A stretch of 51,483 nucleotides of DNA, counting the filler, from Catajapyx aquilonaris (Eukaryota): the NCBI GenBank assembly GCA_000934665.2. It is 2 parts of 2 records of this genome, joined end to end, with 100 filler letters (N's around TTAATTAATTAA, not from the genome) between each part and the next. Parts side by side here need not be neighbours in the genome. Positions count along the whole stretch, not along the records: positions 1 to 25,678 come from KZ539330.1; 1 more part is not named here. One strand, given 5' to 3'. The stretch's first letter is position 1; every line of letters begins with the position of its first letter. The notes under the pieces are model-generated. The model was not told the origin of the DNA. It ran no database searches and was given only the letters and a program-made list of their open reading frames with translations. The position numbers and the translations under genes were made by a program. Of the stretch, positions 1 to 46,146 are shown in pieces.

Positions 1-1743
1 TTAGAGTAGACCTACACACCTTATCTTTAACAGTCTCCTTAACATTACACCTCTCCAAAATCTCCTCATTCCTAATCCTATCGAACTTGGTAACCCCCCA
101 CAAACAGCCCGGAGATAACGCATCTCTGTAGCCAACACCCTACTCTTATGCCTATCTGACCAGACCCACGCTTCACTACCATACATAAGTGAAGGAACAA
201 TAACGTGAGAATAGACAGACAACCTACAAAGATAAGTCCTTATTTCTAGAAAACTTACTTGTGGCATCTATTACTTTCAACGCAGAACTAACTCTCCTGT
301 CTATTTCCCCATCAATTCTACCATTACTCTCAAGGACACTACCCAGGTATACAAACTGGCTGACCTGCTCAACCAGTTTTCCTCGTACCTGCAACGTACA
401 AGGAGAAACCTGCTGTCCCCTCTCAAATACCAATACCTTAGTCTTATCTACGTTAATCCTCATACCTCTCTTTTCACAAACATTATCTAACTTGCATAGG
501 ATCAACTGTAAATCAGCCTCACTCTCCGCCAGAAGGGCAGAATCATCTGCATACACAAGTGACTAACTAACTCATCACCAAACTGCACTCCTACACCTTC
601 AACCATAGCTTCCCTTACACATGCATCTAAGTACAAGTTAAATAACCAGGGAGACATGACACAACCCTGCTTAACCCCAACACTAATGTTAAACCAGTCA
701 GAGAAACCCCCACTAGTTCTAACACAAGCTCTACTCTCTTCATACAATGACTTTACAGCCTCCAACAGGCGGCCCTTCCGTGGGCCCTTCACTCCATAGA
801 GACTCAGAACTTCCCACAAACCTCCCCTACTTACTGTGTCATATGCTTTCTCTAAGTCTACAAAGGCAACAAAAACCTTCTTGTTTACAGCTAAATACTT
901 TTCTATCACGAGTCTCATACAGAATATCTGATCTACACAACTCTTACCCGACATAAACCCACTCTAAATATTCAGTATTCTCAGACTTGTGACCCTCTTA
1001 ACTCTTTCTATCAAAACCTTAGCATACACTTTCCCTGGTACACTTAACAAACTAATGCCACGATAATTCTTGCAGTCACACACATCTCCCTTACCCTTAT
1101 ACAGAGGTACTATAATAGTGTGACAGAAGCAGTCCCTATCACGCATGTCATCCCATCACTTTCACTTTCTTTTTTTGGATTTTTTGGATAGCATAAAATG
1201 GGGGGATCTCCGGATACTCATGGCCGGTCGTTGGGTAGTTCACTGTGCCGATTCCCTCTTGCCTGTCCTCACCTATGTTATCCGGTACTTCCCTTTTTTT
1301 CCCGTATATCTCTCTACACTCGTACGAAATAAAGATCTGTATTGAGCGATGAACCCACTAGCGTTTTTGTAACGAATACGGTTACAATAGCATCCCTCCA
1401 ATCCCTAGGAGCTACACCATTATCAAACGAAACCCTACATAAATTAGTCAAAAAAGTAACTACATCACCCCCGCCACACCTCACCATTTCCGAAGAAATA
1501 ACATCAACCCCAGGGGATTTACCTAGTTTAAGTCCTAAAGCAGCAGCTGCAACTTCCTTCTTAACAATATCCCCACAACCATCATTACTTGGTACAACAT
1601 CCCCAATTAAACTTACAGATACATCAACACTGGCCTTATCACTTGCTGACAGCAAGTCTTTAAAATACTCTCCCCAGCAGCGCCCTTTCGCCTCTCCTCC
1701 ATCCCACAGCATGTCACCCTTCTTATCCTTCACACCCACTACG
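1..1743 (-). mobile_element. Decayed non-LTR retrotransposon (RTE-like LINE) reverse transcriptase region, 5'-truncated, frameshifted
   Basis: Consecutive minus-strand fragments give RT motifs: LKLGKSPGVD, IVPLYKGKGDVCDCKNYRGISLLSVPGKVY, FVDLEKAYD, GVKQGCVMSPWLFNLY, MYADD, FVYLGS, LMYGSEAW. They lie in several frames with stops. Interrupted at 1119-1386. Confidence 0.93.
1119..1386 (+). mobile_element. Solo LTR (268 bp) inserted in the LINE
   Basis: Begins TGTGAC and ends GTTACA; 4-bp direct repeat ATAG at 1115-1118 and 1387-1390; AATAAA at 1328-1333. Removing it restores the LINE reading RDWRDAI-IVPLYKG. Confidence 0.8.
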
Positions 1744-2876
1744 CTAACCCCATGGCCAGTTTATGACAATTTAATGAATAACAAAAGTAACCCGGCTCTT
1801 TATCGGCCAGACATTTTCCGGGAGCCGGTTATTGCGCAACCGGCTCTAAATAAAATTATAATGTGCAAATGTATTTGGAGAAAATATTTTTCGTGTATGT
1901 GTACTGCATATGGCTCACAATCCTTCTGTGTTGGGCTTGGTATTCCAAATTGCAGCTATAATAAGAGGTTCAATGACGACAATACAATACGCATGAGATA
2001 CATTCAACATGTTTCAAAGTTACTGAAGAGGTTATTTCCTTGTTCATCATGGGCATACCAAAACCTCTCACATACCAGGATTTCTAGAAACAATAGGATC
2101 ATATAATTATTGTAAAACCTATCTCACCACTTCATTTTTGCTTGTATCTCTTACACGTCAGCGTTGACGATGCCTCAGGTAGCTCATATCTTTGAAGCCA
2201 CAGGAGCTTTTTGCTAGGTGCGGGTGATGAAATCTGTATTCTAAATCTGAAGATGGAATGTTCTGCCTTGTTTGATGCGTTGACCACTACGGCTTGTTGG
2301 TGCCCTGCAGTACCAACAGAGGCGTGAATTACCGGTTTTTTATACTTCAAAGGCTAATTATAATAATAATATAAATGAATGAATAGGTATGTATAAATAT
2401 TAATTAATTAATAAACAATGAAGATCTATGCGTTCCCTCGTGTAAAGTCGTATTCCAGTTCGTTTTTATTTCACTTCAGCCAACACTCGTTTTAGTCATC
2501 TCCTGTCATCATCAGTTCATCACGATGGTCGATGTGATCACGATCATCATAGTGACAGTACATATAGGTGCATGTACTAGCTGTAAAACCGATGTAGGTT
2601 TCCTCGATAATCACATTTAAACTTTACGGGCTGCCTGAAAATAATGTCGTGACATTCAAAATAATGCTCTCTTTGCTAGATAGTTTGCGCTACCCGCCGC
2701 CGGATGTCGCCATCTACCTGTTTCGAACCACACTGTCTACCACAGGTTGCATGGCGCAGGTCTACCGCAGTACAGTACCTGTCTGCTTTTTCATTGTAAT
2801 CGTGCCACGTGCTTGTGTGTGCTTGTGAAGTTGTCTCAGTTATCCAACACAGGCACCCAACACAACAAGGACAGCC

Positions 2877-5800
2877 ATGACTAGTTCAGATCACGTCCTA
2901 TGCACACTTGTTGGCCAGGTGAGTAACATATGATCATGATTTGGGGAGACCAAAAGTGTATGCAGTTTGCGCATGTAAAAAAAAAAAAAGAAAGAAAGAA
3001 AAAAAGAGGTTAGGTGCTGTATGTAGTCTTTTACACAACACCAAGTAAACTAGACCCAATCTAAACCTGGGACTTTATGCTGCATCACAGCGACAATTCT
3101 CACAGTATGAGTTTGATCCCACCTTTTATTCAGCTCCAGGCCATGATGTAGTGGTGGGAATTTATGGTGCTGGGCGGGGAATTCCATGTACTATTATAAT
3201 GTAGAGATGTCCCTGTGCTAGCACTATGCTTCTTCCATTTGGTCACCACCTGGAGCACATCACTTGCCTGCCAATTGTTGGCAACGACCATTCTTACCGT
3301 CAACACAGGTTTTTGTATTCAGGGTCAGGAACAGGCACGAGTAGCATAAACATCATAAAGAAATTAAATGTGTCACTGATACAACATTACGAGAGTAATC
3401 CTACTACTACATGCCCCCGCTGGAAGTTATTACAGGTCCATCTTAGCATGCCTCTCGCCTGGTCCTGAACGAGTCCAGTGCATTCCCTCGGCTGCTCGCG
3501 CAGTCCTTTGTCTGGGATCCTCTGCCCTTCCATACATCTTGCAGATAGCTTCTGATCAGTGGAAGCTGCTGCATCTCTGGAATCAGGTCACTCACCTCTG
3601 GTCTCACCTCACTGTTCTACTTCGGTCTCGTCCTGTATAACTGTACTGTATAACTGTGCTGCATAAGATGAATCCTCAGGCGCTGCAAGGACTGACAAGG
3701 AAATGGTAGGCCCCTACTTGCTGTAAGTTGAGTAGTCCAGTGAAACTCGACATGCAGAAAGCATGCATATAGTTGATTAGAAGCTTACAAGATATTGGCT
3801 TCTAAAGTTGCAGCTGACCTGAACATTGCCTTTGTGGTGGTTTTTCCCATATTAAATAATTATAGTAGTTTTGAATATCTAAGGAAGGTGTATGGCATGA
3901 AAGTTGCTTCATCCAATGGCATATGGTTGCAATGAGATCTTACCTGAAGACATGGCATATATGCAGTAAGTTTTGGCTGACATTCATTGTTTCAGTAGTA
4001 ATGAAGATTCAAAAGTCATAAAGAAATACACGAAAGCAACACAGATGTTTAATGCTTTTTGCATATTTGTTTATGGACAGATTTACAATAAGCAATTGTG
4101 AACAGCAATGACAACATGGTGAAATCATTAATAATAAATTTGTACAGGGTTGGGCAAAATGTATCTAGCATGATTTGGTTAACATGATATGGTGTTTGTG
4201 CATGCACAGGATATGCCAATTGACCATTCCAAGCACCCAAGAAAGTCCTTGGTAAGGGTTCTTCGAACTACTTTGTCCTGTACGTTCAATTGTTGCACGA
4301 CCTGCGTCTTTCAAGGATGAAAGTGCAGGTCATCATTGATGACTTGGCACAGGGAGCGAGCTGACATTGGTGCCAAAGCGATCGCCGAGGACTTCAGAGC
4401 AGTGCATTGTGTACCTCTTGTATCGATTGAGGGGTCCACTGTGTCCGTGGACGTCCAGTGCTTTCTGGTCCTGGCTTAATGCTGTGTCCTGGAACTGCTT
4501 CACCCACCTTAGATCATCCGGTGGTTGGGGACTTTGTCCTGACGTCCCACCTCAAAATGGCTATGAAAGATTCTTTTTACAGTTATGGGGGAATAATTAT
4601 TTTTAAAATAAATCTCTACAACTAATGCACAATTTTCTGCTGACCATGATGCTATTTTTTATAATGGCCAGAATAATGGCATACAGTATCTTCCCTACTC
4701 CAGCACATGCCCATATTCCGTGCATGCACAAACACCGTACAACTTGAATGAAATCATGCTATACATTTTTCCCAACTGTACAGTGCTGGCCATATATCGA
4801 GGCAACCGCCAGCGACATATTTCCGAAGCGGCAGAAGAAGGAATCTTGCTCGCCCGGCTTGTAGCATGCTTATCTTCGATTCCTTCTTCTGCTGCTTCGG
4901 GAAAATGTCGCTGGCGGTTGCCTCGATATATGGCCAGCACTGTACAATGGTGACATTATTGCATTGTGTATGTTTCTTAACAGGACTAATATTTTATTGG
5001 ATGTAATGTGAATCAGAAATGAATATCTCCTGGAGGCCTGATGCTGATAGGACCGCCACAATAGAAAAGCAATAGAAAAACCAGGTGAAAGATGTTAAGT
5101 TTGCTCACTGGGTGCCTGGATGGGTAATCCACCACAAAAGCAATATTTATGTCAGCTGCAGGCGGAAACTTTAGAAGCCAATATATTCGTAAGCATATGT
5201 ATCTCAGCCTCAACAGACTTCACTTATCAAATCAGCCATGTGCATTTCTGCACACCAAGTTTCACTTTGGGCTACTCAACTTACAGCAGGTACCATTTCC
5301 TTGTGAGGTCTGCCAGAGTCTTGACTGTGAGCAATGTGCGAAGGGGGTTGTAGTCAGTTTCAAGGGTGATATGACTGCCCACAAGGAAGTCACAAAATTT
5401 GTCACATGCCCATGCTAGTGCCAATGCATCTGGGCATAAGACCTCTCACTTGCAGAAAAGTTCTGGAGGCATAAGTTGCTACACTGTACTTCCTGACTGG
5501 ATCAGTTTGGAACACCGTTACCTCCAATCCATAAGATAAGGAATTAGCTGCCAGTATTGTCTTCTTAGATGGGTCAAAAAGTAACAGAACTGGACTCGAG
5601 GACAGTCTTGACGTTACAGCATCGAAAGCAATCTGTTGAGAGCTGTCTCATGACCATCTTACTGTTTTCTTCAAAAGGTCTGTCAAAGCTTAGTCATATA
5701 GGTATAAATCTACTCAGGTAATTAGCGATACCGAGAAGGTAGTGCAAACTTTCAATGTACTTTGGAGGAGACATCTGCATTGAGGACTTTATTTATTTAT

Positions 5801-8800
5801 TTAGTTGGTGCTGTCACATACTTTCATTTGGAGCCAACATAATTCACCCTTGCTGATGTGAAAGAAGGTGATCAACAATCTGGGTTGTCAATACTGTGCC
5901 TATAATGACCAATAGTACTGCTGGCTCCAGAATGGAGGTCCAGTTTCCCTGTGGCAGGGTAAAGGCCTGCTCTCACAAATGTGGTTCTTATCCCTTCATT
6001 GTAGCTGGCTTTTTTTTCATCCCAGAGCAAATGAAACAGTTAGCATTTTTAACTTGCTATTCTCCTGTCTGAAGTTGTAAACCATTTAATCTTTTGATAT
6101 TCGCAATAAACCTGATTATTACACCTGGAAACAAATGTTGCAGGTGCAATAATAATTCATCTTTTTTGGTCATTGGACTTGCACTAAACAACCCAAATGA
6201 CAACAGTAATTTTCAAAATATAAGAGCAATATTGACATTTGGGTGGAGCTTCAATGCAAAACAGCTTGAACATTTGGAAAGCCAAAGTGTTTGACATCTC
6301 CAGATTGAAGTGTACAGTAGGATTCCTTTCCACATGACGCGAAAAAATTAGCCTCCCCCTCATGCAATGACTCACACCCCCCTAGCTAGCACCTCTGTTG
6401 GAGGCTAGTTTTTTCACCTGTGGAAAGGAAATCTTTTAAGCAACTGGACACCTGCTTACAATTGAGTAGCCTAGAATGCAATAGGCCTAAGTGCACTTTT
6501 TTGCGAAAGTGAGATTCAGGCGTGGAAGAGTTCTGATATCATCCGCCCTCATGCTCATAGAATGGTATCAACCCAAGTTCATTCCTGGTGCACTAAAATG
6601 GGATTGGCATCCAGAACGTACATAACCCAAGTCAGGGATTTGGGTTGTATGCATTCTGAGCGAGATCATGGTGTCATGCTTTACTGGTCAGACAGATTGA
6701 TTGATTTGCTCCTTACAGCACAAAAAGTCTATGCTGGGCCAAAATTGAGGTTAGAGATGAAACAGTTCATGTTTACACTAGAAAGTAATATTTCACAGGT
6801 CGTTGAGAATGCATAAAGCCCAAGTCCGGCATTCTCAAAAAAAATTCTTATTTACCTGCATAAGTGACAGCATCGTATGACGTGCACAGAGCTGCCTTCT
6901 CCCATCCTGCATGGAGGAGGGAAAGTTCAATTTCATAATGTTGACAGTTTCTTTTGTACAGTGTTTTGTGTCTCCTGAAAAGTTATGCTCTCTGGACTTA
7001 GGCCAGTTGCATTCTAGGCTATTCATATTCAATTACTAGTGATTGCATGTAATCATTATTCGGGAGGAAGCATTGCTGTGTACTCAAATTATGTGACTAT
7101 ATGACAAAGTGTACACCTGAATATGGTCAATGTTGCCAACTCCTTGGGAAAGTCAGTACGCAGAGTCAGTACAACAAGTTGTTGGAACAAAGATATAAAA
7201 ATAGTCTACAGGAGGACAAGTCAGAAGACAAGTGTCTGCCTTGAACGAAGTTACAACTTGCTCTACTTTGCTTCATGGAGTAACACTTACTTGCCATGCC
7301 AAAAAAATGCCTGATGATTGCTACTCTGTGTAACTGCTGGTAGGTGAATAATACTGCAGCATATTGCCGTGTCACACAAATGATCAGACACCATTAGGAC
7401 TGGAGAAAGCCAACTTGGACCACTGGACAGACCGCTGCGCTGGTTGGGCCCCCATCCTCCATTTAAAATGGGTTTATTCCCTATTTTATTCCTCACAAGT
7501 TGTGTGTCCTCCTCATGCATTATGTACATTCAAGTGTAGTGCAGTGTACAGTGGTGGAAATTAATGGAGAAGCACAAATACTGCCTCCTGGAAGAGCTTT
7601 TCCTTTACATGAAGCTGCTTCATGTAAAAGAAAAACCTGGAAAAACTTTGCCAGGAGGTGATACTTGTGCTTCTCCATTAATTTCCACCACTGTACAAGA
7701 TACTGATGTGTTGTTCCAACAAAAATGAGTCCACTGCTAGAACTTTTCCCACTAACATAGAACTCTTATACTATGGTCGCTTTTTCAAAAATACATGTAT
7801 GCTGAATTGTAATCAGTGATTTGCAAATTCTCCCAAATAATTCTTTTTAAGTTACTGAAGAAAATGTACCAGTATGCATTGGTAGTATGCGGTCATATTG
7901 AATTAGCAAGACTGCATTGCCAAATGTCAAATTTGAACAACTCCAAAATTAGCACAATGTCATAGATTATGTTAATGCAGCTGGGAAAAATAAGTTCCCA
8001 TTGTATGGCTATGCTGGCATGTTTTATGTATTGGACAAAGCACAATAATTTTAACTTTGAAACCATGCCTCGTATGTCATTCACGTAATTTGGCCCCTAT
8101 GACTTCATATTACAAAATGCCCGACCCATACATGTGCTTCTCTATTAATTTCCACCACTGAACATGTACAGGACTAACACTCCATGCATGGGTCGACCAT
8201 TTTGAAATATGACGTCGTATGGGCCAATTTATGTGAATGACATACGAGGCATGGTCACCATTCGACTTAGCAGGGTCGAATTACGCGGAAATGACACTTA
8301 ACCGAAAGAATCCGTCAGTTGACGCACTTTCAATTAGCACATTAGCATGATTTTAATTGACAGCCCCCTCCCCCTCCTCATGGATGGAATTTCGTGTGCT
8401 GTGGACAAAAACCTTTCATTGAGTCCAGCTGGGAAACATTTCCCCAAAGTGACTTGCTTCTAACATAATTGTTTTCCCATTTTTAGTGTGTATCATTGCT
8501 ATGATTCAAGCAGGCAGGCCCTTTTCTGGGTCGTGGACGTCACTCACTCCCGGTAAACAGTGGCAACAATCGAAAGAACACTGTAAGCGACTTCCTTGCG
8601 ATGATGTCTGAACGGCGCAAGGAGGCGGAGTGGTGCTGCGGTAACGCACGCTCCCACGGATGGTCCCAGGTTCGATCCCAGCCCGGGGTTCCCCCCTTCT
8701 TCTCGTGCAGAGTTGGGCCATCTCTGACTTCGTCTCTGGTGGGAATTTCCGCTAGACTAATCCACCTGTGGGAGTTCACAAAATGACCAAGCAACGACAT

Positions 8801-11800
8801 TGCACTTGTACTTTGCACATCCCCTCCTACCTACCCTAATTGTGGACCAACTAAATAATTGTAAATTATACACATGGTTCCAACTATGGTGGTATTCCCA
8901 CCCCCTAAGAGGGCCTCGCGGCCCTAGCACGGGGTATCTGGAAAAAAAAATTGTCTGAACGGCGCTGTTGCAGGTAACGCCAGCGCCGTTGTTTACAATT
9001 AGGGAATGCAATTTTGTCAGGTACTGTACATGTTACATGGTGTTACAGTAAACCAAACCAAAGTTGCAACCAGAAGTATATGTGACTTAACACAGAAATT
9101 TGAGTGAATGTGAATCAATATTTTGCAATTGCCTTATGCAGTATGAGGGGCTGAGAAAAAGAATGGCATATGCCACAGTAGAGACAAAAGTAAATAAACA
9201 CATTTGAAAGTTTTAATTGCCAATATCTTCAGTGTTAAATTGGAAAGTTTGGGTGGTGTTTTCACTCAGAGAGCACATGCCAACATAAGCATTTAGTCTG
9301 TGACACTGGTAGAATATGGTGTGAAGTGTTGATAACTCAGTATACCATGTTGAGTGGCATATGCCATTCTTGCTCTCAGACCCCCAGTTGCAAGGGGAAA
9401 CTATAATTGCAGTTGCCAATGTTACCACAAAAATCACATGGCAGCATCCCTCATATCAAGAAGCACACAAGTGCACCTCACATCATATGCTCCATGAATG
9501 GTAGTCGTATTATATTTTTGTTGGCTCATTTGCTTTTCATTCATAACTGAACGTAATCTATGGCACATTACATCGACTGATATTTTTTCCCCATTCTATC
9601 TACAGGGTTTCATCAAGGAAATACTTGCAGAAAATGTTTTGTGGTGTGTCAATGGATGCGATGGCATGCTTTCAATGTACAGGATTAGGAGGCATGCCGA
9701 TCTGAAGTGGATGGTGTCACTTTATTGCCAAAAAGAGGTCAGTATTGCCATTTCACTGTAATATGATGATGTTCCATTGACATCCAAACTCAAGAGACTA
9801 GAAATTTGAGTCTGGTAGGATTGACTGGAAGTTATTGCTTACATTAGAAGGAATAGACTTTTGTTCTTTGAAACTATAGGGTGATTCATAAAATAATGAC
9901 TTCACCTTTTACATTATGCATAAATCTGGAATGGAATTAAGAAAACTCATCCACTCACATTTGAACTCTGCGGGAATTCTGAGAAATGCTGACTAATCTC
10001 CTTCCACATTACAGTATATGTTTGAAGTGTCTGCCATCATTCTCCATCCAAACTATCGTTGTCATATCTTTATATACCTTGTAAGTTGTGGAACAACTTG
10101 ATGACATCAAGTTGACAGATGTTACTACTGCTGATTTTTTTCTTTAGGGATAGCTAAAGGAAAGAGTGCCTGTGAAATCTCCCAAAGACACTTGCGCAAC
10201 TCCAGAAGACCAGCAGAAATTAAGTCACCGACATTGATTGTCATATGCTTCACCAAACGTCACATAATAAAATGGTGTGACGGGTGCAATATTGTCTTTG
10301 GATGGAGATGGAGGACACTTTCAACATTTGAGTCGTGGCGTTTCAAACATGGCTATCTTCAAAATGAGAATTTTGAGATGTCCACCCCATCTGCTGGCTA
10401 GAGTGGAACTACATTAGTTCCTGAAGCAGCAGTAACAAAAAAATGACCATCTTCACATCATTCTGCTTCGGCGAAAATCGTGTTAATTTCAGAAGGTAGA
10501 GTTCTATCTTCGGGAGCATGGTAGGATCAAAAGTGACTACTGAAACGTTGAGCCTGATTGAAGATAGCCATTTTTGAAACGCCACGACTCATTTACTGTA
10601 ACATGGCAGGTGGTTTGTCTGATACTCCTACAATGGGGAACTAGCCTTGGTCTGGGATTTGGGATTTTTGTTCATAACTAGCTAGCCCATGCCTGTAAAC
10701 ATACATTCCGTCATTCTGTTGCATCAAAATGACATTACAGGATAAATTAAGGCACATTTAAAAGTGCCTTCAAAATTGGCGGGAAAAATGGGGCAGCCGG
10801 GTGGTGCCAATCGAAAGGGTACACTGAAATGCCAGGTTGACTGCGAGATATGAGGAATTTGACTTTGAATTAACCGCGGGCACGACGGAAAGCATTCGCA
10901 AGGCGGCTGTAGGACATCGAGGTGGAGAAAGGGGGCCTTTATGTGCCTAATTCGGGAGACAGATATTTCCGACCTGGTGACATCACTGCCACGTACAAAG
11001 CGGTTTGAGCGGCTTAGAGTAAAAACTCGCCCGTTACCTGGCAACTAAGTAAACACTTGGACTGCTAAAATGTCCAGCCGGGTCCAGCACAGTACAACGA
11101 ATTGATCATTTTACGACCCTGCCGGAGCGCGTTCTATAACATCATTTTTGCGTTCATTTCACTTCGCGTGACGTCAACATTTTCGAGGGAAACAGTGACG
11201 TCACCATTTCCCTACGAAAAAACCCCAATTACTCCGGAACTGAAACTGATTTCTTAAAACGGAATATGCCAAAAAAATCCAAAAAATATGGGCGAATTGA
11301 TTATGTAGTTTCCAAAATGAAGGCTAGTTCTCCATTCCCATATATTTCAGTTATATGTAAAATGTATTGGTTTTTTCAATTTCATTCTAGTTAAAAAATT
11401 TTTTTACATGCACCACACCCTGTGTTTGGACGGAAGTGATAGGTTGCCAAAATTAGTGTGGTTTCTGTGCTGGGCATGCATGGTGGGCCTATGGAATGGC
11501 CAGAAAAGGAGGTGACGTGTGGATACACGTGAATTTTCATTGTTAAGTATACACACAATGACATGGGGCGCCACCAGACATAGAAGTTGGTGTAGGCGCC
11601 ATGGATTTTTAACTTGGATTTAAAATTGTAAATGCTGAAGACAACCTTTCTTTTACTGCACCCAGTATGTAGCACCTCAAAATCATCCTCCAGTAATCAT
11701 AGGATTTCTCCAATTAGGGCATCCCAAACTGCCATAACCATTTGAACCAGAAAGAGCCCAACCCCTTCCGAAAATGACCTAGTGACCTATCTGAATACTG

Positions 11801-12088
11801 TTAAAGTGAGATCAATATAACCAAATGAATTTTTACCAAGATATTTTGAAATTGGTGGAATTCATTGTATGCATGTGGATGTTGTGGTAGCATTTAGCTT
11901 GTTGAACAATGCATGGAAGGTGAACAAGTTCTCTCTGATTATCTCATTACATGATCAATTTTCAGAAACTATCAGCAGTGGATGTTATACTTCTGCTCAA
12001 TGGCACCAAGATTTCCGGCACTGATTCTGCTGCATCCTTGGACATGAAAATAGGAGATCATATTGACATTTATCTGCCAGAACATTGA
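2877..12088 (+). CDS. Divergent SUMO-like protein (98 aa) lacking the C-terminal Gly-Gly; exons 2877-2918, 9606-9737, 11966-12088
   Basis: Spliced product: MTSSDHVLCTLVGQ|GFIKEILAENVLWCVNGCDGMLSMYRIRRHADLKWMVSLYCQKE|KLSAVDVILLLNGTKISGTDSAASLDMKIGDHIDIYLPEH*. Exons 2-3 align without gaps to SUMO2/3 (V.G.DG....I.RH..L......YC; LS.........G..I..TD...L.M...D.ID). All junctions are phase 0 with good GT/AG sites. Exon 1 is inferred from gccATGA and CAG|GTGAGT and is less certain. Confidence 0.75.
4145..4778 (-). mobile_element. Internally deleted Tc1/mariner-type element with transposase HTH remnant
   Basis: About 75-bp imperfect TIRs (CAG.GTTGGG.AAAATGTAT..CATGATTT...GGTGTTTGTGCATGCAC) with TA flanks. 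Minus translation fragments WVKQFQDT, TGRPRT..TPQSIQEV, SPRRS, DLHFHP*KTQVVQQLNVQD. Confidence 0.75.
4781..4942. mobile_element. Tc1/mariner-type MITE (near-perfect hairpin)
   Basis: TIR CAGTGCTGGCCATATATCGAGGCAACCGCCAGCGACAT..., arms about 65 bp; TA at 4779-4780 and 4943-4944. Confidence 0.85.
6320..6434. repeat. Degenerate inverted repeat (probable MITE)
   Basis: GATTCCTTTCCACA...AAAAAATTAGCCTCC versus GGAGGCTAGTTTTTT...TGTGGAAAGGAAATC. Confidence 0.45.
7549..7693. mobile_element. Tc1/mariner-type MITE
   Basis: TIR CAGTGGTGGAAATTAATGGAGAAGCACAA with TA on both sides; a further single TIR copy lies at about 8133-8160. Confidence 0.85.
8062..8255. repeat. Imperfect palindrome (about 70-bp arms) enclosing a fragment of the 7549 MITE TIR
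   Basis: ACCATGCCTCGTATGTCATTCAC... versus ...GTGAATGACATACGAGGCATGGT. Confidence 0.6.
8627..8775 (+). mobile_element. tRNA-derived SINE, family A copy 1
   Basis: A-box-like TGGTGCTGCGG and B-box GGTTCGATCCC; homologous to the minus-strand copy at 14460-14631. 3' end approximate. Confidence 0.6.
9126..9410. repeat. Degenerate inverted repeat element (MITE-like)
   Basis: GGGGCTGAGA.AAAGAATGGCATATGCCAC versus GTGGCATATGCCATTCTTGCTCTCAGACCCC. Confidence 0.45.
10330..10590. mobile_element. Non-autonomous TIR element, possibly Sola-type
   Basis: 33-bp TIR GAGTCGTGGCGTTTCAAA.ATGGCTATCTTCAA; 4-bp duplication ATTT at 10326-10329 and 10591-10594. Confidence 0.7.
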
Positions 12089-12314
12089 TTTAAACCAGAG
12101 ACAAAGGAATTCAAAATGAATCAATAGGACTGCTCACCCACACTAAGCATGATTTGATCTGGCATCATTCATATCTTTACTGTGACCTGCCCAGTTAGTA
12201 GGGAAGCTAGGGATGACTAGGATGTCCAAGAGAAGATAGTGTCACCCACTTCAGTGTATAGGATGCCAGTTTTTGTATGCTTAGTGCTTATACACCAGTT
12301 AATACGTAAAATAT

Positions 12315-12456
12315 GTGTTCTCAAACTCGCAAGAAACAGCCTTAGTGAAAGCATGGGTGAGTAGGCAATTGTCAAACCCAATTGGTTCATGGATTTTACC
12401 AATGGGGTTCATTCACTCTTTCTCTAAGGCTGTTTCTTAATGAGCTTGGGAACACA
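12315..12456. repeat. Inverted-repeat element (MITE-like)
   Basis: GTGTTCTCAAACTC..AAGAAACAGCCTTAG versus CTAAGGCTGTTTCTT..TGAGCTTGGGAACAC. Confidence 0.5.
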
Positions 12457-12463
12457 CCTTAAC

Positions 12464-12543
12464 CAAGGGGGTAACAACTCCCCCGGTTCCAGGCCTGTTC
12501 CAAGCTGGTTCCAACGGTGTTCCACGAAGTTGTTACCCCCTTG
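12464..12543. mobile_element. 80-bp micro-MITE with 8-bp TSD (hAT/P-type)
   Basis: Perfect 16-bp TIR CAAGGGGGTAACAACT; TSD ACCTTAAC at 12456-12463 and 12544-12551; four internal GTTCCA motifs. Confidence 0.85.
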
Positions 12544-14459
12544 ACCTTAACTCATTTCCATACATGATGAAAAATTATACACTTGGCGCTAATGCCAACA
12601 AGTTGTGGCAATAGCACACCTGCCTTTTAATACAAAAGAAGAGAACACTTTTACATAATGTAGGATGACATCTTGCAAAAGACAGAATCTTTACAGAAGC
12701 AATAGCTATCTTTTCTCCTATTTTAATGTTGAATCTTAAAATATATACGAATGGCATATTTTAACTGTATAGTGAGGAATTAATGTGATGGAAAATTTAT
12801 CACAAAAAATTACAACAGGCAATTCAAATTACTTTATCATGCAATGGAAATGTTGATTTTCTCAGGGTCTTTTCATGTGGATTTAAGTTATAAAGTAATA
12901 AAAATGCTGAATGTTTATACATAATGTAGAACAGACAGATCTTTTATTTTCATATAGGCTACAGTTCAGTAAAACTTCAATATGACCCTCTTCAAGGAAC
13001 CAATCCAAAGTAGCGTTATTGACCAGAATTCGTCATATACTGTATGCAGGAAATGCCATTTAATTCACCGTTACTCGGGAAATGAATACCTTCACTGTTC
13101 TATGTGGATGGATTCCTATAAACCACATTGTCCTGACCTAACCTGTCCATGTATATACCACATAGACCCTGAAAATATCCCCTGGATTACCCAAGTCCCA
13201 AAACAATGGCGATTGACCCGGGTCATAGTTCACATAAGCTGCCTCTCCACAATGCTCGCATGTGCAACTCTTGCCAACAAGGCCCACCGCCTTACACTAT
13301 CCCACAATGGCCCTCATACCTCCAAAGGCACAAAAGTGTATGGAAAAAATGCCTCATTATTCATGGCTTGTTGTCAGTTGCTCATGGCTCCTATTCTGTC
13401 AGCCTGCTTTTGAGTCCCCCCTCTCCTCCCCTGTGGGTCTCAGGCCACACCATGCCAGGATGCAGCAAGCCTATCACCTTAGCAGTGCCTCCCTGCCATT
13501 GCCATATTTCTTGCCAGTCCACCAGTCCACCCTGGACAGCTTCCCTCTTCCCAAACCAAACCTCACTTGTCATGTGACCTTCAAGCGCCTTACACATGAT
13601 GTGCCTTTTGATGTTATATGTGTTTTATGGGTACCAGCGAAACCAAGCAGTATATATGCAGGAAAATGTACCATTGGCCCTTATGGAGCTGATCAAGGGA
13701 CTGGAAAAATGGGTGTTAAAAGCGGGATAGCATTATATGCGAGAGCATTATATCGAGGTTTTGCTAAGTTATATTAATATTTAAGGTCTATAATGGTGAA
13801 AACACTGTTAATATAGACTCCTACCATGGGGGTTCTTGTAGGTGTGGCCATGTTAATACCAGTCCCACAACTCCATTGCAGTATGTACAACATTAGCTTT
13901 CGTTACAACCAGCGCCAGATTAGTCCCCCCGGCCGTCTTAGGGAGTTGAGATCTGCTGCCCCCCTCCCCCCATAAATCACTTAAAAATGCCATTTTCTCC
14001 TGTGTTCTCACTTTTGTTTTATTGTATTGTATTTTATAAATCTAAGTTGAGTGTTTTTTTGAGTGTCCATTTTCAACGAAGTGCCTGGATCTACTGGCAT
14101 GGGTGGGAACGTAATGCCCGGGTCCATGGGCAGGGTGACTTGGAAGGGAGATGCAAGGTGCAATTGTAATGTCATTGTTGAGGTCATTTTGTGAGTTCCC
14201 CTGGATGGTTAGCCTAAGGCCCGCCGCAAATGAGGAAATGTGGGAGGGAGGCAACTTGCATGCACATAATTATCCAAGTATTCATGTTGCCTGCTAGAGG
14301 GTACAAGTGTCGTGGCCCAACTCAGCCCATGCCAGCACGCCCAGATTGGCTCCAAATTTCTTGGCAGCAATAAATCTGCATGCGCTCACTGCCACAGGAG
14401 AGCGCATGTGCTGTGCCGTCCTGGGTGGATGGGCAGGCAATAAGTTGCTCCCAAATTTC

Positions 14460-15367: not shown

Positions 15368-16065
15368 CGGAGGTCTCAAACATGCGGCCAGCGGACAACT
15401 CAATTGTGGCCCCACGGTCCTATCTCATGTTTTTGGCCATTATCAACATGTTTAACAATTTGACGATGGACAATGAATACCTTTACGTCATGTCTATATT
15501 TATGGCTCTGCCATGGGTTCAGTGGGGAAGTCTGGGAAAATATTTCTTCTGAAAATGTCAATTGTCAGTTACATTCAGCTAGGATTGTGTGACCTTGAAC
15601 ACAAACAAATTTTCACCTGCGGCGGGCTCTTGTTCTCTTCCCAGTTATTGTTTACTTATTAGTACTAGTTTCCGGCTTGCATATGGCACTTCTACCGAAG
15701 CAGGTTGGCATAGTGGATAAGGCGTCCGACTGCTAATCGGGAGGTCCTGGGTTCGAATCCCGGGGCCGGAAACTCTGACTGTGGTTTTCTGTGGTTTCCC
15801 ACGGTCCTTCCAGGGAAATTCCGGAGTTGCTTCAGTAATTAATAGGCCACAGCCGCTTCCTTCCGTCCCTATCCTATCCCAAAGAGCGCAGTAAAATGAA
15901 AGCAAAGAGTTCCAGCCGAAACAAACTTCCCCCCTAAAGAGCCGATGGCTCATAACGGGGTATGAATTATTATTATTATTATATGGCACTTCTGGTTAGT
16001 GCGGCCCGCACTAAAGTTCCCCCAAGCTTATGTGGCCCTCTATCTAAATGAGTTTGAGACCCCTG
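15368..16065. mobile_element. hAT-type non-autonomous element hosting a SINE
   Basis: TIRs CGGAGGTCTCAAAC / GTTTGAGACCCCTG; 8-bp TSD ACTTACAG at 15360-15367 and 16066-16073; internal TGCGGCC motifs. Confidence 0.8.
15694..15980 (+). mobile_element. Full-length tRNA-derived SINE (Lm1-like core, (ATT)n tail)
   Basis: A-box TGGCATAGTGG; anticodon-like stem CCGA-CTGCTAA-TCGG; B-box GGTTCGAATCCC; core GGTTTTCTGTGGTTTCCC...GGCCACAGCCGCTTCCTTCC; ATT tail; 13-bp TSD ATATGGCACTTCT at 15681-15693 and 15981-15993. Confidence 0.92.
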
Positions 16066-17208: not shown

Positions 17209-20200
17209 TTATGGAAATGATGGACATTTTTCCTGAGGGTTCATTACAGAGCTTGTTTTGCACTGAAATGCTGTTGAAAACTGTGCTGAGTTCTTCATTA
17301 GAGAATTCATCCTGAAAAGGGAAAAAAATGATATCAGATGGTTGAAAAACATTGTTCACACCCATGCATTATCCAGGGTGTTTCACTAGGTAGTCCTCCC
17401 AAAGAATGAACTAACTTATATTTTTCTTCCTACTCTACCTATAAACGTGATGTTTGATTTAAAAGTAACCTCAGTTCATGGGAATGTAGCACCATTCACA
17501 ATAAATGCTGGAATTGAACTTCAACTACCTCCATACACCCTCTAACACGACTCGACTCGACGCTCCTTATTATCAAAGATACTTCGCAGTATATCCTCAT
17601 AAATGGTCTGGATTGCTGCATTGATGTTGCTTTCCAAGTCTTGTAACGTCGAGGCTCACTGTTGTAAGCACAACTCTTCAAATATCCCCATTAGCGGCTC
17701 TTTTGATAGGTAGATACAGAATACTCGGTTTCTTGAGACAAAATCGAGGTGACTTTTTCGTTCATTCCAGCAGCCTGCGCTTCACTTTTTCGGTTTTTTT
17801 TCTTCCTCTAAAGGTCATCTACCACTGTATTGGTCCAAAACACTTCGTGTAACAATCCTGACTATTATGTCGATATGATGCTGAGGGCCTTCAATAATAA
17901 GGAGCGGCACGTGAAGTCGCGTTAGTGTGTGTATGGAGGTCGTTGAAGATCATATACAGCATTTATTGTGCATTGTGCTACATTCTCATGAACTAAGGTA
18001 ATTTTTAAACCATACATCATGTTTCTAGATAGAGTAGGAAGAAAAATATAGTCAATTCTTTGGGGGGACTACCTAGTGCAACACCAGCATGTATTTCATG
18101 CGCAAAAAAAAACAACTATTGCTCAATTGCTGGCAGTAGGCTAATGTTTAGCCCGTCTCTCTGCAACTAATAATATTTCCTCTTGAGGCACAAAATTGGT
18201 TTACAACCTCCAGAGGAATAACATTGATGCAGTAGTGATTTTCCCATCCATTTTGGGTACATTGCATTACTGTGAAAATGCCTTGAAACAGTAGACCTGT
18301 ACTTTGGGAGTCCAGATTATGAAGATTTGCAAGGGCATATGATGACGTGAATCATACAGTTTCAATGCTTTTCATCACAACATATGCATATTATTATACC
18401 ATCAAAGCAGCTGTACAGATATCTCATTTGTATTTCCAACATATTATTTTGTATTTTAAAAACTTCACAGATTCATTAGTTCAAATATGTCTGAGGTGAA
18501 GCATAATAAATTCTACTTACTTCAGTAACGGAGGCAACTGTTCACTTTCTTGCACATTAATCACGTAGTCAAGAACCACATCTTTGGTGCAGTAGAACTG
18601 GGGGAGAGAATGTAAGGAAGTGAGACAAAATTAATATGAAAGTTTTAACAGTATTGTATTGCAGGTTTGGGAGAGGAAGAGAAAATTAAAGATGGTGTAC
18701 AATTAATTAAGCAATGATTGGTGCAGTATATTTTTGAAAGTTTCTACCCTTCCTTACTTCACGGGGATTCAGTGGGGGAGTTTTCCTATGCAGTAATTTT
18801 TTATCACAGATTGCTGGTACGGTATTTAAATTACATGAAGTTAATTTGGCGTCATTTTACATATGTCATGCTGAATAAGTAAGTGTTGGTCTTGAAGTTG
18901 TTCAAATGAAGGATGCATGCATAAGGTGGATTTTACACATAGGAAGGCATATGTTTATGTCTTATGTAGTTGAGTCATAAATTTTTAGTTGGTTCAGACT
19001 CATTAGTTGAACTGAGAAATGAAGAAAAGATTGGTGCAATTAAGCGAACATTATGAACAATAGTGGGATGAGTGCATTACTTTGAATTATTATGTAAGAA
19101 GTAAGTTGGATACAATGTGAAGATGGGGTAGGGTGTCACCTGGTGACAGAGGATCACAAGTGAGAGCATTCTGTGTTGGACTATCTGGTGGATTGGTTGC
19201 CCTATGAAGGGAGCGCTGCATACTGTTCCTTGACTGCTGAAGCCTACGTAGTTGTCAGTAATTCATTGAGAGCTTCAGTTTGCTGTCATTGTTGACTCAG
19301 TCCATGATCCTACATATCAGATTGTGTCCTTACTTCAAAATATTTAAAAGAAGGCAATTGTGTCTGAAGCGTACTGCAGAAACTGTTCATGTGTTACCAT
19401 CTGTATACAGTTCATCACAACATTCTTCTTGTGTGAATGGTCCAGTACATTTTAAAAATATGCTTGGATTTATCATATTAATCTTGTCCATTTATGAAGA
19501 CCTACCTAGAGGCCTACTGACATTTCAAAAGTGCAGAGTTGAGCAAATACAAACAGTGACTGTTTTAAAGCTGTACGATTTTGATACTGAAAGCTACTAA
19601 AATGTGACCTTGACTATGCCCTATCCACTGCTATTGGTACAGTACTCATGCATGTACGAACCGGCAAATGTTATGCTCAAGGTCATATGGAAATTGACAT
19701 TTCTGTGATGTGAGAGCAAGGATCTGCCCAAGTTCTTTTTGTATTTATTGCGCTCTAAAGTGTCTTACCTGAGCTGCTGCCAAGTAGTAGAGTTGTTCAT
19801 TGTTTAGGTCCATCAATGGCAAGATACTTTCATTTTGGCCTTGGTATGATTCCCATGCCAACTTCATAGCTGATGAGTCTGCAAATCTCTCATCCAAAGA
19901 AAGCTTGGATTCCAACTGTGGAAATAGTACAATACAAGTTATTATTTACTGTGAGATATTTGCATGCTTTTTGGTGTCTTGCCATAAAAGATGCTGATTT
20001 CCCATCAAGATGCACAGACATAGTGTAGGCAAACATGTCATCATAACACTTAAATGTGCTTTCATGATCCCCATCTGGGTCTTCAGGCTGGAGTTGACCT
20101 TTTTGGTTATAACGTATCCCTGAAACACGATTAATATGTTTTAGTACTGATTTATTGAGTTGAATTTGCATAGCATTAAGTGTACCTTACCAACACTGTC

Positions 20201-25147: not shown

Positions 25148-25352
25148 CAGTGGTTTCCAACCTTTTACCAATGCGACCCCCTAAACATGTTTCCATAAAT
25201 GTGCGACCCNNNNNNNNNNNNNNNNNNNNNNNNNNNNNNNNNNNNNNNNNNNNNNNNNNNNNNNNNNNNNNNNNNNNNNNNNNNAAAAAAAAAAAAAAAA
25301 GGGCTGAACAAAGGCTCGCGACCCCCCGCAACCCCCCGGTTGGAAACGACTG
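25148..25352. mobile_element. hAT-type MITE spanning a 75-N gap (25210-25284)
   Basis: TIRs CAGTGGTTTCCAACC / GGTTGGAAACGACTG; 8-bp TSD ATGTAGTT at 25140-25147 and 25353-25360. Confidence 0.85.
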
Positions 25353-25678
25353 ATGTAGTTCAATATTAACTGGTGCCTTGTACGAAGCGCCCTGGCCCCC
25401 GGGCAGGGTAACTAGGAGGGGATGTGCAAAGTGCAGTGCGAATGACTAATCCCACCAAAAACCTTTCTGTAAAAAATGGCCAAGTTCTCCTGACTGCTTG
25501 GCCGTCAAAAGTCGTGAGATCTGAAATACGGCCAAGTTCAACGTCGTACTCATTACTGGCATTCTCAACTTCTTCAACCTAAACCACTAACTTTGTTTTT
25601 CCAGGTCGACCTTAAGTTTAATCATCAAAACATTTTAATGGAGTTTCTCCTGATGTCACTTGGCCATTGCTCAGGTCC

Positions 25679-25778
25679 NNNNNNNNNNNNNNNNNNNNNN
25701 NNNNNNNNNNNNNNNNNNNNNNTTAATTAATTAANNNNNNNNNNNNNNNNNNNNNNNNNNNNNNNNNNNNNNNNNNNN
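25679..25778. other. Artificial contig-concatenation linker N44-TTAATTAATTAA-N44
   Basis: Exactly 44 N + 12-mer + 44 N = 100 bp; the palindromic 12-mer has stop codons in all six frames. Confidence 0.95.
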
Positions 25779-25880
25779 ACTCCCGATATGCTAATTTAAG
25801 GCGGTGTAGGGGCTTTCCCCTGGATTTCTATAAGGGACAAACAAACAAACTCTCCTCATTTATAGATTAAGAAGAAGAAG

Positions 25881-25955
<75 letters not shown>
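25881..25955 (+). repeat. (ATT)25 microsatellite preceded by short (AAG)n
   Basis: Read directly from the sequence. Confidence 0.97.
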
Positions 25956-25957
<2 letters not shown>

Positions 25958-26000
25958 GTTGCAGATATTCAGAAGAGATGACTTGATCAGGCATAACAGT

Positions 26001-29000
26001 ATGAGGGGGCTGGCGGTGCTGCTTCTGGTGCTGTTTCTACTGGCGCCGGATGGCTCCCAGGGCTATGTGGTGGTGGTACGGGAGGATCTTCCTGAGGGGT
26101 CGGTCCTCTTCTTCGGTGGTGTTGGCGCCTTCAAGAGCCACCTCCGGATCGACAAGGTCCGAAGTGGCTCTGGTGCGCACCATATCCTGACAATGAGACC
26201 TGATGGCGCTCTGGTTCTTCGTCGACGTCTGGACTGCTCTGGCGCGTCTCACCCCAACCCGCTTGGAGTGTACCTAGAAGCGTCTCTGCCGTCCATCAGC
26301 GACCAGAACCATGATGGTGCAGATGCAGTCTTCCTTCCTCTGAGGCTTCTGGTGCTTCCGTCCAAGTCTGGCGCCAACGTCACATGCCGTCCACATGTAA
26401 CGGGGCATCCAACCAACCCTCACATGGCTGCCCTTGCAGCGGAGAGGTCAGCACCACCGTGGGCGGCAGCCACTCTGGTCAGCTTGCCTCTGGTCAGCTG
26501 GCGCCAGCAGGAGGACCATGGATGGCCATGTCTGCGGCAGAGCCAGTTCTTGGCTGACTTGCTGGCTCTTCTGCCTGATTCGGTGCGTCGCAAGTGCAGG
26601 CCAACCTTCATGGCCCCAGAGCCTTCCAAGTGGGTCCGGATTCAACAGCACCACCATGGTGATGGTGAACCCTACGTTGCTCATCTGGTGTCAGCTAAAG
26701 ATCAGGTCACTAACCATTGCAAGCGATTATATGTTTATGTCACTAATGTTTTAATTGATCGAACAGTGTATGGAAGCTGCAACGTGGCGCATTAATGTGA
26801 CAGTGGATCTCCATTGCGTTGAGGACAACGATGCGGCCTGGGTGGCGTCACGTCGGCATCTTCTCCGTGTTCTTCTTCATGGGCGAGGAGTCTCCGGTGA
26901 CTACTGGCCACCTGACGATGCGCTCAGAGGATCCCGCTTAAGTGTGGGCAACAGGCTTCGGAGGGAGATGTCCCGTAACCAAGCACCGTTCTTCCCAACA
27001 CCACTTGTCACCGCAACTGTAACAGAAGAGAAGGCATCAGGATTATCAGTCACGACTATGGCTGCACGGGATCCGGAAGGTGGTCCGCTGACATATTCAA
27101 TGGTGTCCCTTCTGGACGCACGCTCCCAATCACAGTTTGCAATTGATGAACGGACCGGCGCAGTGAGGACGTCAACCCGGCTCGACCGTGAGACCATGGA
27201 CGCACACTTCTTTCGTATCACAGCCGTCGATTCCGGTTTGCCACCAAGATCCGCCACTGCAACTTTGCAAGTACGTGTCAGCGATGTTAACGACAACCCG
27301 CCGCTGTTTGAGCAGCAGCAGTATGAAGCGCATGTACGCGAAGGTGCCAATGCAGTCGGTGCAACATTGCTGACATTACGCGCGTCGGACCAGGACAGCG
27401 GTGCAAATGCGCAGGTCAGATACTCCCTCCAGGCCACGGATGGTGACGCAGATGCATTCCGTGTCGATGCTAGGAGCGGGGTGCTCACAACTCGGCTTCC
27501 TCTTGACCGCGAGACAAGGAGCAGCTACGTACTGACAGTACTTGCGGAGGATCAGGCCCCAGTGCAGCAGCGGCTGACAGCAAGTACCACCGTTAACGTC
27601 AACGTCATCGACGACAACGACAACTACCCGCAGTTTTCCAGAAGAAGTTATTCCGTCAAATTGCGGGAAGACTTGGATGCTTCACGTGCACCAATAGTTG
27701 CTACAGTCAGGTAATTACAAATGTTATGATTATTGTAAAGCTCTGACAACAATTGGCTGTATTTTAATGTTTTAATGCGTACATTTCAGTGCCGTGGATG
27801 CGGATGATGGTGCTAATGCTGCTGTTCGATATGCAATAATTGGTGGGAATCCTCAGGGTCAATTTGCAATTGACCCCATGACTGGCGACGTAACACTTCT
27901 GCAATCACTGGATTACGAGGCGGCACGTTCATATCGACTTGTAATCCGAGCCCAAGACGGTGGTACCCCAGCTCGTTCTAACAATACGCAGCTGGTAGTA
28001 GAAGTGGAGGATGTGAACGACAATGCCCCTCGATTCTACTCTGAGCGAATGCAAGAATCTATCGCTGAGGATTCACCAGTCGGAACTAGCGTGTTGCGAC
28101 TCCAGGCGTACGACGCTGATGACGGGCCCAATGGACGTGTGTCCTACTGGCTGACTGGTCCTGGCAGCACTGACGACACATTGCCTTTTGCTGTGGATGC
28201 ACAAACCGGTTGGATTACAACAAAGAAGGAGCTGGACAGAGAGGGAACACCAAGGTACCGGTTGGATGTCCTGGCTCGTGACGATGGCTCACCAACACCT
28301 CTGAGCGCAACTGCAAGAGTCACCATCACGGTTCAGGACGTCAACGACAACGACCCTGAGTTTGACCACCCACTGTATGAGGGCTCGGTAGCGGAAGACG
28401 CAGCTCCTGGTACCACGGTACTTACGCTTGTGGCACACGATGCCGATATTGATCTCACCAGCGATGTTGCTAGTGTTGCTAACCGATTGCACTTTGCTAT
28501 CGTCGATGGAAATTCACGGGCCAGGTTCGCCATTGCTACCCAAGGCACTGGCGTAGCCGTCGTGAGTGTGGCACAACCATTGGACTTCAGACGTGAGCAG
28601 CGGTTTGTCATGACGGTGACAGCGACAGACGCTGGAGGAAGGTCAGGTCGCACCAGTGTTGTGGTGACGGTGCTTGACGCGAATTCATTTGCACCCGCAT
28701 TTGAAGGGGCGCCGTATTCAGCGTCAGTGTTTGAGGATGCCGTTATTGGTTCGACTGTGCTGGTTCTCAGCGCCAGCGATGGCGATGCTGGTGCCAATGC
28801 TGAAGTCACATTCTCATTTGCTGGCGATGCACCACCGGAATTTTCACTAGAACGAAACACCGGGGCACTCGTACTTGCAAAACCATTAGATCGGGAGGCC
28901 GTCCTGTCCTATCTGCTGACAGTCATTGCCAGCGATGCAGGTCAGCCGCCACTGTCAGACACGACGGACGTGGAGGTCCTTGTGGCTGATGTCAATGACA

Positions 29001-45301: not shown

Positions 45302-46146
45302 GTCCATGTGACTTATTTTGATCGTTGAGAGGATCGATTTTGAGAGTGGTTTTGCCCCCCGTGCTCGCCCCTGGGCCTACCCGGGCTTGGTTAGGAAAGG
45401 TAGGAGACTCCGCCGGACATGGTGGTAGTGACGGAACGGGCCTAGGAGCAATGGTGTTTGCGGGAATGTGTTTTACCATTGTTTTACATGTGTTGTGATG
45501 CAATGTAGCTTGTTAATTGCCTCTTAATTAATTTTGAAGGGTTGTACATCCCAGTGGGTTAATTAGTCTACAGTGTCAGCACAGGTTGGATCAGTGTCAC
45601 TTGAAAATACAGTGACTTGTATAAAGCAGTATAGACTGTGCAATGTGCAAAATTTGGGCATTACAAAGCAATTACATGACTGCATTATTGTTATTTTCCC
45701 TAAAATTACCGTTGCATAAATATTGCAGATTTTTGTGTGTGTGTCTATTTACTGCTGGGTGATTGTGGGTAATTTTTTGTGTATTCATTTAAGGAAATAG
45801 CACGTTAAACTTTCTCATAGCAACAAAGCTGTACCAGTGTACAATTTCCGATGCTAAACTGTTGTGTCGTAATGTGTATGCACAGTGAGAAAGAGAAATT
45901 GTCACTTTTTTTTCTTCCTCGTCAGCTAAGCTTTCATACTGCATCCGCTGACAAGGATCAATATTGGATTGTTGCACGTGATGTCCCCTTAATTATGCGA
46001 CGTACACCACAGTAGGCCAACTAAGAGTAACTGCATACCGGTAGTAATTTTTTACACACCTTGTTGACACACATTACCTTCATTATGCGATGGTGTTGAC
46101 ATACTTTGTCTTAATTATGCGGTCACATGCAATATGTTCTTTTCAG

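Follow-up and report, generated by a model that had tools for sequence, protein, structure and literature searches.

We examined a 51,483-nucleotide stretch of Catajapyx aquilonaris DNA (assembly GCA_000934665.2; two parts from two records joined by filler, hereafter ‘the window’) and focused on a small three-exon gene in its first part, record KZ539330.1, that an earlier note had described as a hidden SUMO paralogue without the C-terminal di-glycine. The gene is very probably a real, spliced one that encodes a single SUMO-like domain lacking Gly-Gly. Its origin would lie in the DNA-level duplication of a gene of the SUMO2/3 (Smt3) type, with later divergence to about one third identity. The whole of the explanation that we consider best, in which the product is a working, non-conjugatable and free SUMO look-alike that binds proteins carrying SUMO-interacting motifs (SIMs), appears from the sequence to be evenly balanced between right and wrong.

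The gene lies on the plus strand and comprises three exons, each of which holds a whole number of codons, which puts both introns in phase 0 and gives a product of 98 residues. Its features, from 5′ to 3′, are as follows:

2819..2876, plus strand: 5′ untranslated portion of exon 1, counted from the start of the contig described below; in-frame TGA at 2826-2828
2877..2918, plus strand: coding exon 1, 14 codons (MTSSDHVLCTLVGQ); G at position −3 of the ATG; donor CAG/GTGAGT
2919..9605, plus strand: intron 1, 6687 nt, skipped by the contig; inverted repeats like those of miniature inverted-repeat transposable elements (MITEs) inside
9606..9737, plus strand: coding exon 2, 44 codons; encodes a short N-terminal stretch and the beta1, beta2 (MYRIRRH) and helix 1 (…LYCQKE) elements of the SUMO-like domain
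9738..11965, plus strand: intron 2, 2228 nt; donor GAG/GTCAGT, acceptor TTTTCAG/A; contains the repeats 10329-10591 and 10632-11336
11966..12088, plus strand: coding exon 3, 40 codons plus TGA at 12086-12088; encodes the second half of the SUMO-like domain, whose C-terminus reads …IDIYLPEH-stop
12089..12920, plus strand: 3′ untranslated region, its exact end approximate; poly(A) signal; contig pieces 11964-12298 and 12565-12821 exact

Both introns are bounded by GT and AG, and both acceptors show a pyrimidine tract followed by CAG. The coordinates, translations and phase-0 splicing into 98 residues that had been claimed for this gene were borne out by translation and by the exon lengths. Upstream of the ATG at 2877 the frame is shut by the TGA at 2826-2828, with no ATG in between, and at its other end it is closed by the TGA at 12086-12088; the product is therefore a stand-alone 98-residue protein bounded by stops on both sides, as had also been claimed. 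The sole AATAAA/ATTAAA signal within 1.4 kb past the stop is located at 12897-12902. No further SUMO-like exons were found within the 51-kb window.

The predicted junctions were compared with run X1, the only public run that covers the 3′ part of the gene (a run of unrecorded kind, stored as contigs and compared over 2500-13300; such contigs cannot reveal strand, transcript ends or expression level). One contig from this run, 565 letters in length and at a depth of 8.6, connects all three exons. Its joints were placed at 2915 to 9603 (skipping 6687 letters) and at 9735 to 11964 (skipping 2228), with both skipped parts of the GT..AG form, and the two cuts can be shifted by 3 and 2 places, respectively, to fall exactly on 2918/9606 and 9737/11966. 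These are the junctions that the earlier note had predicted and proposed to check. The contig starts 97 letters before the first joint and continues to 12298, so the complete frame, from the ATG to the terminal TGA, lies within it together with the upstream stop. The contig pieces that were tabulated (9603-9735 and 11964-12298) contain no mismatches and no gaps, and a second contig matches 12565-12821 exactly.

The presence of two real GT..AG introns also bears on how the copy arose. A processed SUMO retrocopy or pseudogene, which would be intronless and carry a poly(A) remnant, was ruled out by these introns, both of which the contig bridges; the proposal of a DNA-level duplicate, made originally from the sequence alone, agrees with the same observation.

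SUMO ancestry and the missing Gly-Gly

The coding sequences of exon 2 and exon 3 were searched separately, which makes them two independent tests of the relationship to SUMO. Against all PDB chains, the first 28 of the 33 matches to exon 2 were SUMO2/3, with a best E-value of 0.056 for an ordinary chain (the value of 2.5e-06 obtained with 4bkg_A reflects a tandem di-SUMO2 chain that is counted twice). Exon 2 residues 13-43 align with residues 20-50 of the 93-residue chain 2d07_B. All 25 matches to exon 3 were SUMO2/3, fly SUMO or the SUMO-like domains of NIP45 (E-values of 0.26-1.8, and 0.0015 for the di-SUMO2 chain), with exon 3 residues 9-37 aligned to residues 60-88 of 2d07_B. The best single-domain PDB match of exon 3 was NIP45 SLD2 (E-value of 0.26), and exon 2 matched SUMO2/3 rather than NIP45. 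Exon 3 additionally matched the Pfam family Rad60-SLD (PF11976) across profile positions 38-72 of 72, with an E-value of 0.0097 and 16.1 bits (cut-off 23.8). In the ESM atlas the top-ranked named clusters for the same exon were those of Rad60-SLD/SUMO (score 0.90; 20 of 30 matches; 176 shared features; recognition 2926).

The registers of the two alignments are collinear: exon 2 residue 44 corresponds to SUMO2 residue 51 and exon 3 residue 1 to SUMO2 residue 52, with no gap across the junction. The gap-free alignment with SUMO2/3 that had been reported for these exons was thus recovered in separate PDB searches, and it spans about 75 residues. Identity to SUMO2 in the printed alignments is 10/31 for exon 2 and 10/28 for exon 3 (∼34%). 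Because two weak matches point to one small family and are both collinear and in register, chance is not a plausible explanation, and descent of the gene from a SUMO2/3-type (Smt3-type) sequence is supported by these comparisons.

The message would encode a 24-residue hydrophobic N-terminal piece followed by one SUMO-like beta-grasp domain. (We infer this fold from the alignments, and likewise the non-conjugatability and the selection discussed below.) The basic beta2 strand is retained, with MYRIRRH opposite QFKIKRH in the printed alignment, as is the G-x-D-G hairpin between beta1 and beta2, in which G24, D26 and G27 are identical. Also kept from SUMO2 are L40, Y47-C48 of helix 1, G64, I67, T70-D71, L76, M78 and D82-x-I-D; of these, the turn residues G64, T70, D71 and D82-x-I-D are identical. 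Every one of the positions that we take to form the hydrophobic core of SUMO2 (I18, L20, V22, V29, F32, I34, L40, L43, M44, Y47, I58, F60, F62, I67, L76, I84 and V86) is hydrophobic in the 98-residue protein. The acidic patch EMEDED is replaced by DMKIGD, the F-D-G turn by LNG (Asp to Asn), and the beta3 sequence IRFRF by VILLL, so that two exposed arginines are gone; the contrast drawn in the earlier note between a kept basic strand and an altered acidic patch is confirmed by the printed alignments. The sequence IKEI stands where SUMO2 has VKTE, and the 24 residues ahead of beta1 form a hydrophobic stretch, not a charged and disordered one. With respect to the retained strand, QFI and IKR of beta2 are the residues whose mutation abolishes SIM binding, according to the cited portion of PMC12077520.

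At the end of exon 1 (2880-2918, …DHVLCTLVGQ) the first strand is seemingly present a second time, in addition to the aligned part of exon 2. This stretch resembles DHINLKVAGQ, which we take to be the first strand of SUMO2, as well as or better than the aligned exon 2 part does. We rejected the idea that exon 1 was copied from the beginning of exon 2: shuffled sequences scored at least as high as the real ones in 1452 of 2000 cases for protein and in 25 of 300 for DNA.

The terminal TGA aligns with residue 92 of the 93-residue SUMO2 (exon 3 residue 40 being equivalent to SUMO2 residue 91), such that …IDIYLPEH-stop is found opposite …IDVFQQQTGG. The domain would end four residues past its last strand, at the position of the first C-terminal glycine of SUMO. 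Gly-Gly is absent from the protein and from any frame downstream of the stop, and the run X1 contig carries the same terminal stop; the alignment and the frame scan together substantiate the original description of a di-glycine-free ending with its TGA at the first glycine position. The 98-residue protein is consequently missing the defining feature of a conjugatable SUMO, namely the C-terminal Gly-Gly that serves SENP/Ulp, E1 and E2. Because it has neither Gly-Gly nor a tail that SENP/Ulp could trim, the established SUMO pathway would allow it no canonical maturation, no adenylation by E1 and no transfer by Ubc9, and by analogy with that pathway this SUMO-like protein is probably non-conjugatable.

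A working protein or an expressed relic

Considering the open frame, the good splice sites, and the retained core and beta2 groove, we favour a working, non-conjugatable SUMO-like binding protein, a preference that is drawn from sequence features. Such a protein would be a free, non-covalent SUMO look-alike in which the SIM groove between beta2 and helix 1 has been retained. It might bind SIM-bearing proteins without tagging them, and thereby compete with SUMO conjugates or bridge them; SIM binding itself and the decoy or adaptor role are guesses. That the protein still works as a non-covalent binder, with SIM binding the most likely mode, is a proposition that we would place at, or slightly to the favourable side of, an even balance.

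Whether the frame could have stayed open by drift was addressed with a neutral simulation in which the coding sequence changes by substitutions only (insertions and deletions, the ATG and the four splice dinucleotides are not counted). Runs remained free of stops in 30 of 1000 cases at 35% amino-acid identity, in 84 of 1000 at 50% and in 202 of 1000 at 70%. Neutral survival would be lower still if insertions and deletions, the four splice sites and the ATG were also counted. Because neutral survival is 30/1000 at the present level of divergence, and because the core is kept while the surface has changed, the open frame speaks for selection, past or ongoing, for a folded protein, with which a recent loss of function would also be compatible.

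Several observations weigh against a functional SUMO-like binder. No relatives were found for exon 2 among longer or near-length proteins, nor for exon 3 among longer proteins. A HMMER search with exon 2 against 1.84 billion representative proteins returned no true relative (the sole match, P0003, is a bacterial SprB/CHU_C repeat protein with repeated ‘VxGCD’ stretches and was rejected as spurious), and none of 203 pattern matches in metagenome contigs was confirmed. Each single-exon match to SUMO is weak by itself: exon 2 has no Pfam match at E-values up to 10, exon 3 falls under the Pfam cut-off, and the ESM atlas was uninformative with exon 2 (best score 0.76). Loss of the acidic patch, of the FDG aspartate and of the beta3 arginines is also what decay is expected to produce, and the two exposed hydrophobic residues of beta3, together with four cysteines, could make the protein poorly soluble. 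The neutral survival of 0.03 is a rough figure, as the simulation starts from the present sequence and uses a uniform model. Finally, given that the kind of run X1 is unrecorded, the joined form seen in its contig could in principle be a retrocopy in DNA. The word ‘hidden’, as applied to the gene in the earlier note, is fair in view of the lack of a match in three large protein collections; and since no relative was found, the gene may be a lineage-restricted, decaying copy.

The last of these thoughts leads to a serious rival, namely an expressed relic. On this view the gene is a SUMO paralogue, possibly from a set of divergent, once conjugatable SUMO-like genes particular to the lineage, that lost its Gly-Gly (for example through a nonsense change at the first glycine codon) and is still transcribed and spliced but no longer has a function as a protein. 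We regard this as a possible but minority explanation. It is in keeping with the lack of relatives among the protein collections and metagenome contigs, with the missing Gly-Gly and the altered acidic patch, FDG aspartate and beta3 arginines, and with the TGA being one substitution away from GGA. It fits less well with a 98-codon frame, an ATG and four splice sites that are all intact at ∼34% identity when 30 of 1000 neutral runs stay open, or with core and turn residues that are kept (on our assumed list of core positions) while the surface has changed. Also against it, the sequence past the stop retains no trace of a second glycine codon and contains no Gly-Gly in any frame, so the loss of Gly-Gly was not very recent.

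It is also conceivable, although we consider it improbable, that the protein works in a role outside SIM binding, either as a hydrophobic-patch (ubiquitin-like) module, as an inhibitor acting on E1, Ubc9 or SENP, or with its groove covered by its own N-terminal piece. The replacement of IRFRF by VILLL in beta3 places two hydrophobic residues on one face of the domain, which we take to be the class II or ‘backside’ surface, and the 24 N-terminal residues are hydrophobic where a disordered and charged segment might have been expected. SUMO binding by modes other than SIMs exists according to the cited part of PMC12077520, and a tying-up of E1 and E2 is suggested for non-conjugatable SUMO forms in the passages cited from PMC9911741. 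No result, however, favours any particular partner, and the aspartate needed for backside binding of Ubc9, as judged from the D62R/D63R change in SUMO3 that disrupts this interaction (PMC6391914, as excerpted), is an asparagine in the 98-residue protein.

The idea that there is no separate gene here at all, and that the exons are open frames due to chance, parts of a larger gene or an assembly artefact, could draw on the weak single-exon E-values and on an exon 1 without detectable homology; it is very unlikely, given that two independent exon queries lead to the same family in collinear and gap-free fashion, that a contig from an independent data set connects the three exons exactly, that stops shut the frame on both sides within that contig, and that the 51 kb contain no other SUMO-like exon.

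Introns and neighbouring features

The introns of the SUMO-like gene had been called ‘transposon-filled’. That description holds for the repeats, which amount to 12 inverted-repeat pairs (∼8 of them MITE-like) and multi-copy stretches, but it does not extend to transposon proteins, since none of the 10 intron open reading frames scanned has a Pfam match. Intron sequence includes stretches that are matched by many high-depth run X1 contigs with 90-95% likeness. At 4770-4953, 8.3-9.0 kb and 10.4-11.5 kb, these high-depth contigs are many and diverged, and the corresponding sequences are multi-copy and present in the run. An inverted-repeat scan located the following elements:

4770-4953, 6463-7025, 7545-7697, 8062-8255 and 9144-9386: MITE-like inverted repeats of intron 1
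10329-10591 (MITE-like palindrome or terminal inverted repeat) and 10632-11336: repeats of intron 2

In the 3′ untranslated region, the part that lies outside the exact contigs (12320-12560) contains an internal palindrome (…GGGGGTAACAACT … AGTTGTTACCCCC…) that is probably a small inverted-repeat element.

Further features of the window were noted on either side of the gene. A retroelement fragment with a reverse-transcriptase (RVT_1) match lies about 2 kb upstream of the SUMO-like gene (502-963, minus strand), and an open frame of 257 residues without a Pfam match is found at 1333-2106 (plus strand). At 15706-15763 (plus strand), an Rfam tRNA match of 36 bits covers model positions 8-63 of 71, and ARAGORN reports no tRNA in the window; the match is probably a tRNA-derived repeat (the head of a short interspersed nuclear element) or a tRNA relic. 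An inverted repeat at 17417-18050 has arms of 186 nt that are 81% complementary and 262 nt apart.

A large CELSR/flamingo-type gene is found at 26755-36232, on the same strand as the SUMO-like gene and later in the window, whose domains comprise many cadherin repeats, a CELSR ninth-cadherin domain, EGF, laminin G, HRM, GAIN and a secretin-type 7TM domain. Its exons have a GC content of 0.54-0.58, versus ∼0.40 around them, and its AT-rich introns are very short, at ∼60-70 nt (27711-27779 and 30463-30520, for example), against 6.7 kb and 2.2 kb in the SUMO-like gene. A gene of this type marks the host as an animal. Just upstream of it, at 25209-25778, are three runs of N (assembly gaps), and an open frame at 25866-26795, which has no Pfam match, may be its N-terminal exon. 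A 306-residue open frame at 46048-46968 (plus strand) carries ADH_N and ADH_zinc_N domains, as in zinc-type alcohol or sorbitol dehydrogenases, and coincides with a local GC peak.

Comparison with known SUMO-like proteins

Precursors of SUMO2/3 (Smt3) resemble the present protein in being the best match of both exons and in sharing the turn residues, the Y-C pair of helix 1, the basic beta2 strand and the possession of introns. The 98-residue protein differs from them in its level of identity (∼34%), its lack of Gly-Gly and of a pro-peptide, its DMKIGD and LNG sequences and its hydrophobic N-terminal piece. Animal SUMO2/3 proteins are highly conserved. In the message of human SUMO2, exon 3 can be skipped, with exon 2 joined to exon 4 (PMC9911741, in the part cited), from which it follows that the SUMO-like gene has one intron fewer than human SUMO2. 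The ancestral intron positions proposed in the earlier note, on the grounds that human SUMO2 would likewise have a second exon of 44 codons, are a conjecture.

Proteins that are SUMO-like and lack Gly-Gly are already known, in the form of the RENi family, plant SUMO-v and the human SUMO alpha isoforms. Outside plants, RENi proteins (Rad60, Esc2 and NIP45) consist of a long, polar, low-complexity N-terminus and two SUMO-like domains; these domains have no double glycine and have been proposed to work by binding (PMC549199, cited passages). The present protein shares with them a SUMO-like domain without Gly-Gly, and Rad60-SLD is the Pfam model that exon 3 matched. It lacks the long polar N-terminus, since beta1 is preceded by only 24 residues and the TGA at 2826-2828 shuts the frame upstream, and in place of two successive domains it has a single one within its 98 residues.

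Plant SUMO-v is described as a conserved, non-canonical variant that keeps the beta-grasp and the SIM surface, and a role as a scaffold or recruiting partner has been proposed for it (PMC6629649, in a passage citing Augustine et al.). SUMO-v differs from our protein in belonging to a plant lineage and is said in the same excerpt to be closest to RENi (PMC6629649). [quoted passage not shown] In working principle, the 98-residue protein would appear, by analogy, to be closest to these three: the SUMO-like domains without Gly-Gly, plant SUMO-v and the human alpha isoforms.

Two additional comparisons can be made. SUMO4 and SUMO5 are intronless retrocopies that keep Gly-Gly, are non-conjugatable or poorly matured and may still bind SIM proteins, and the gene described here differs from both in having introns and in having no Gly-Gly. 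Hub1/UBL5 is a small, stand-alone ubiquitin-like protein that also lacks a C-terminal Gly-Gly and binds non-covalently; it represents an ancient family conserved across eukaryotes and is alike in being stand-alone and free of Gly-Gly, but it belongs to a different family, and no sequence match to it was seen.

Work on SUMO usually treats it as a covalent tag, and the general view is that animals carry between one and a few strongly conserved SUMO genes. In insects the number is one or two, according to the cited part of PMC4866545. No stand-alone SUMO paralogue without Gly-Gly was found for animals in the literature (open-access full text). The furthest-reaching interpretation is that the present gene is a separate, fast-evolving animal gene for a non-conjugatable, free SUMO look-alike that tunes the SUMO system by occupying either the readers of SIMs or enzymes of the pathway; the gene might be one member of a SUMO-like radiation confined to its lineage, and would be the first stand-alone, single-domain animal SUMO paralogue without Gly-Gly to have a gene of its own. 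We offer that interpretation tentatively and think it unlikely to hold in full. If it is true, the protein would amount to a natural ‘SUMO delta-GG’ and provide a probe of free SUMO-like surfaces (in SIM competition and enzyme sequestration), and it would be an animal counterpart of plant SUMO-v. If the gene is instead only a relic, it would illustrate the decay of a core modifier gene while that gene is still spliced and transcribed.

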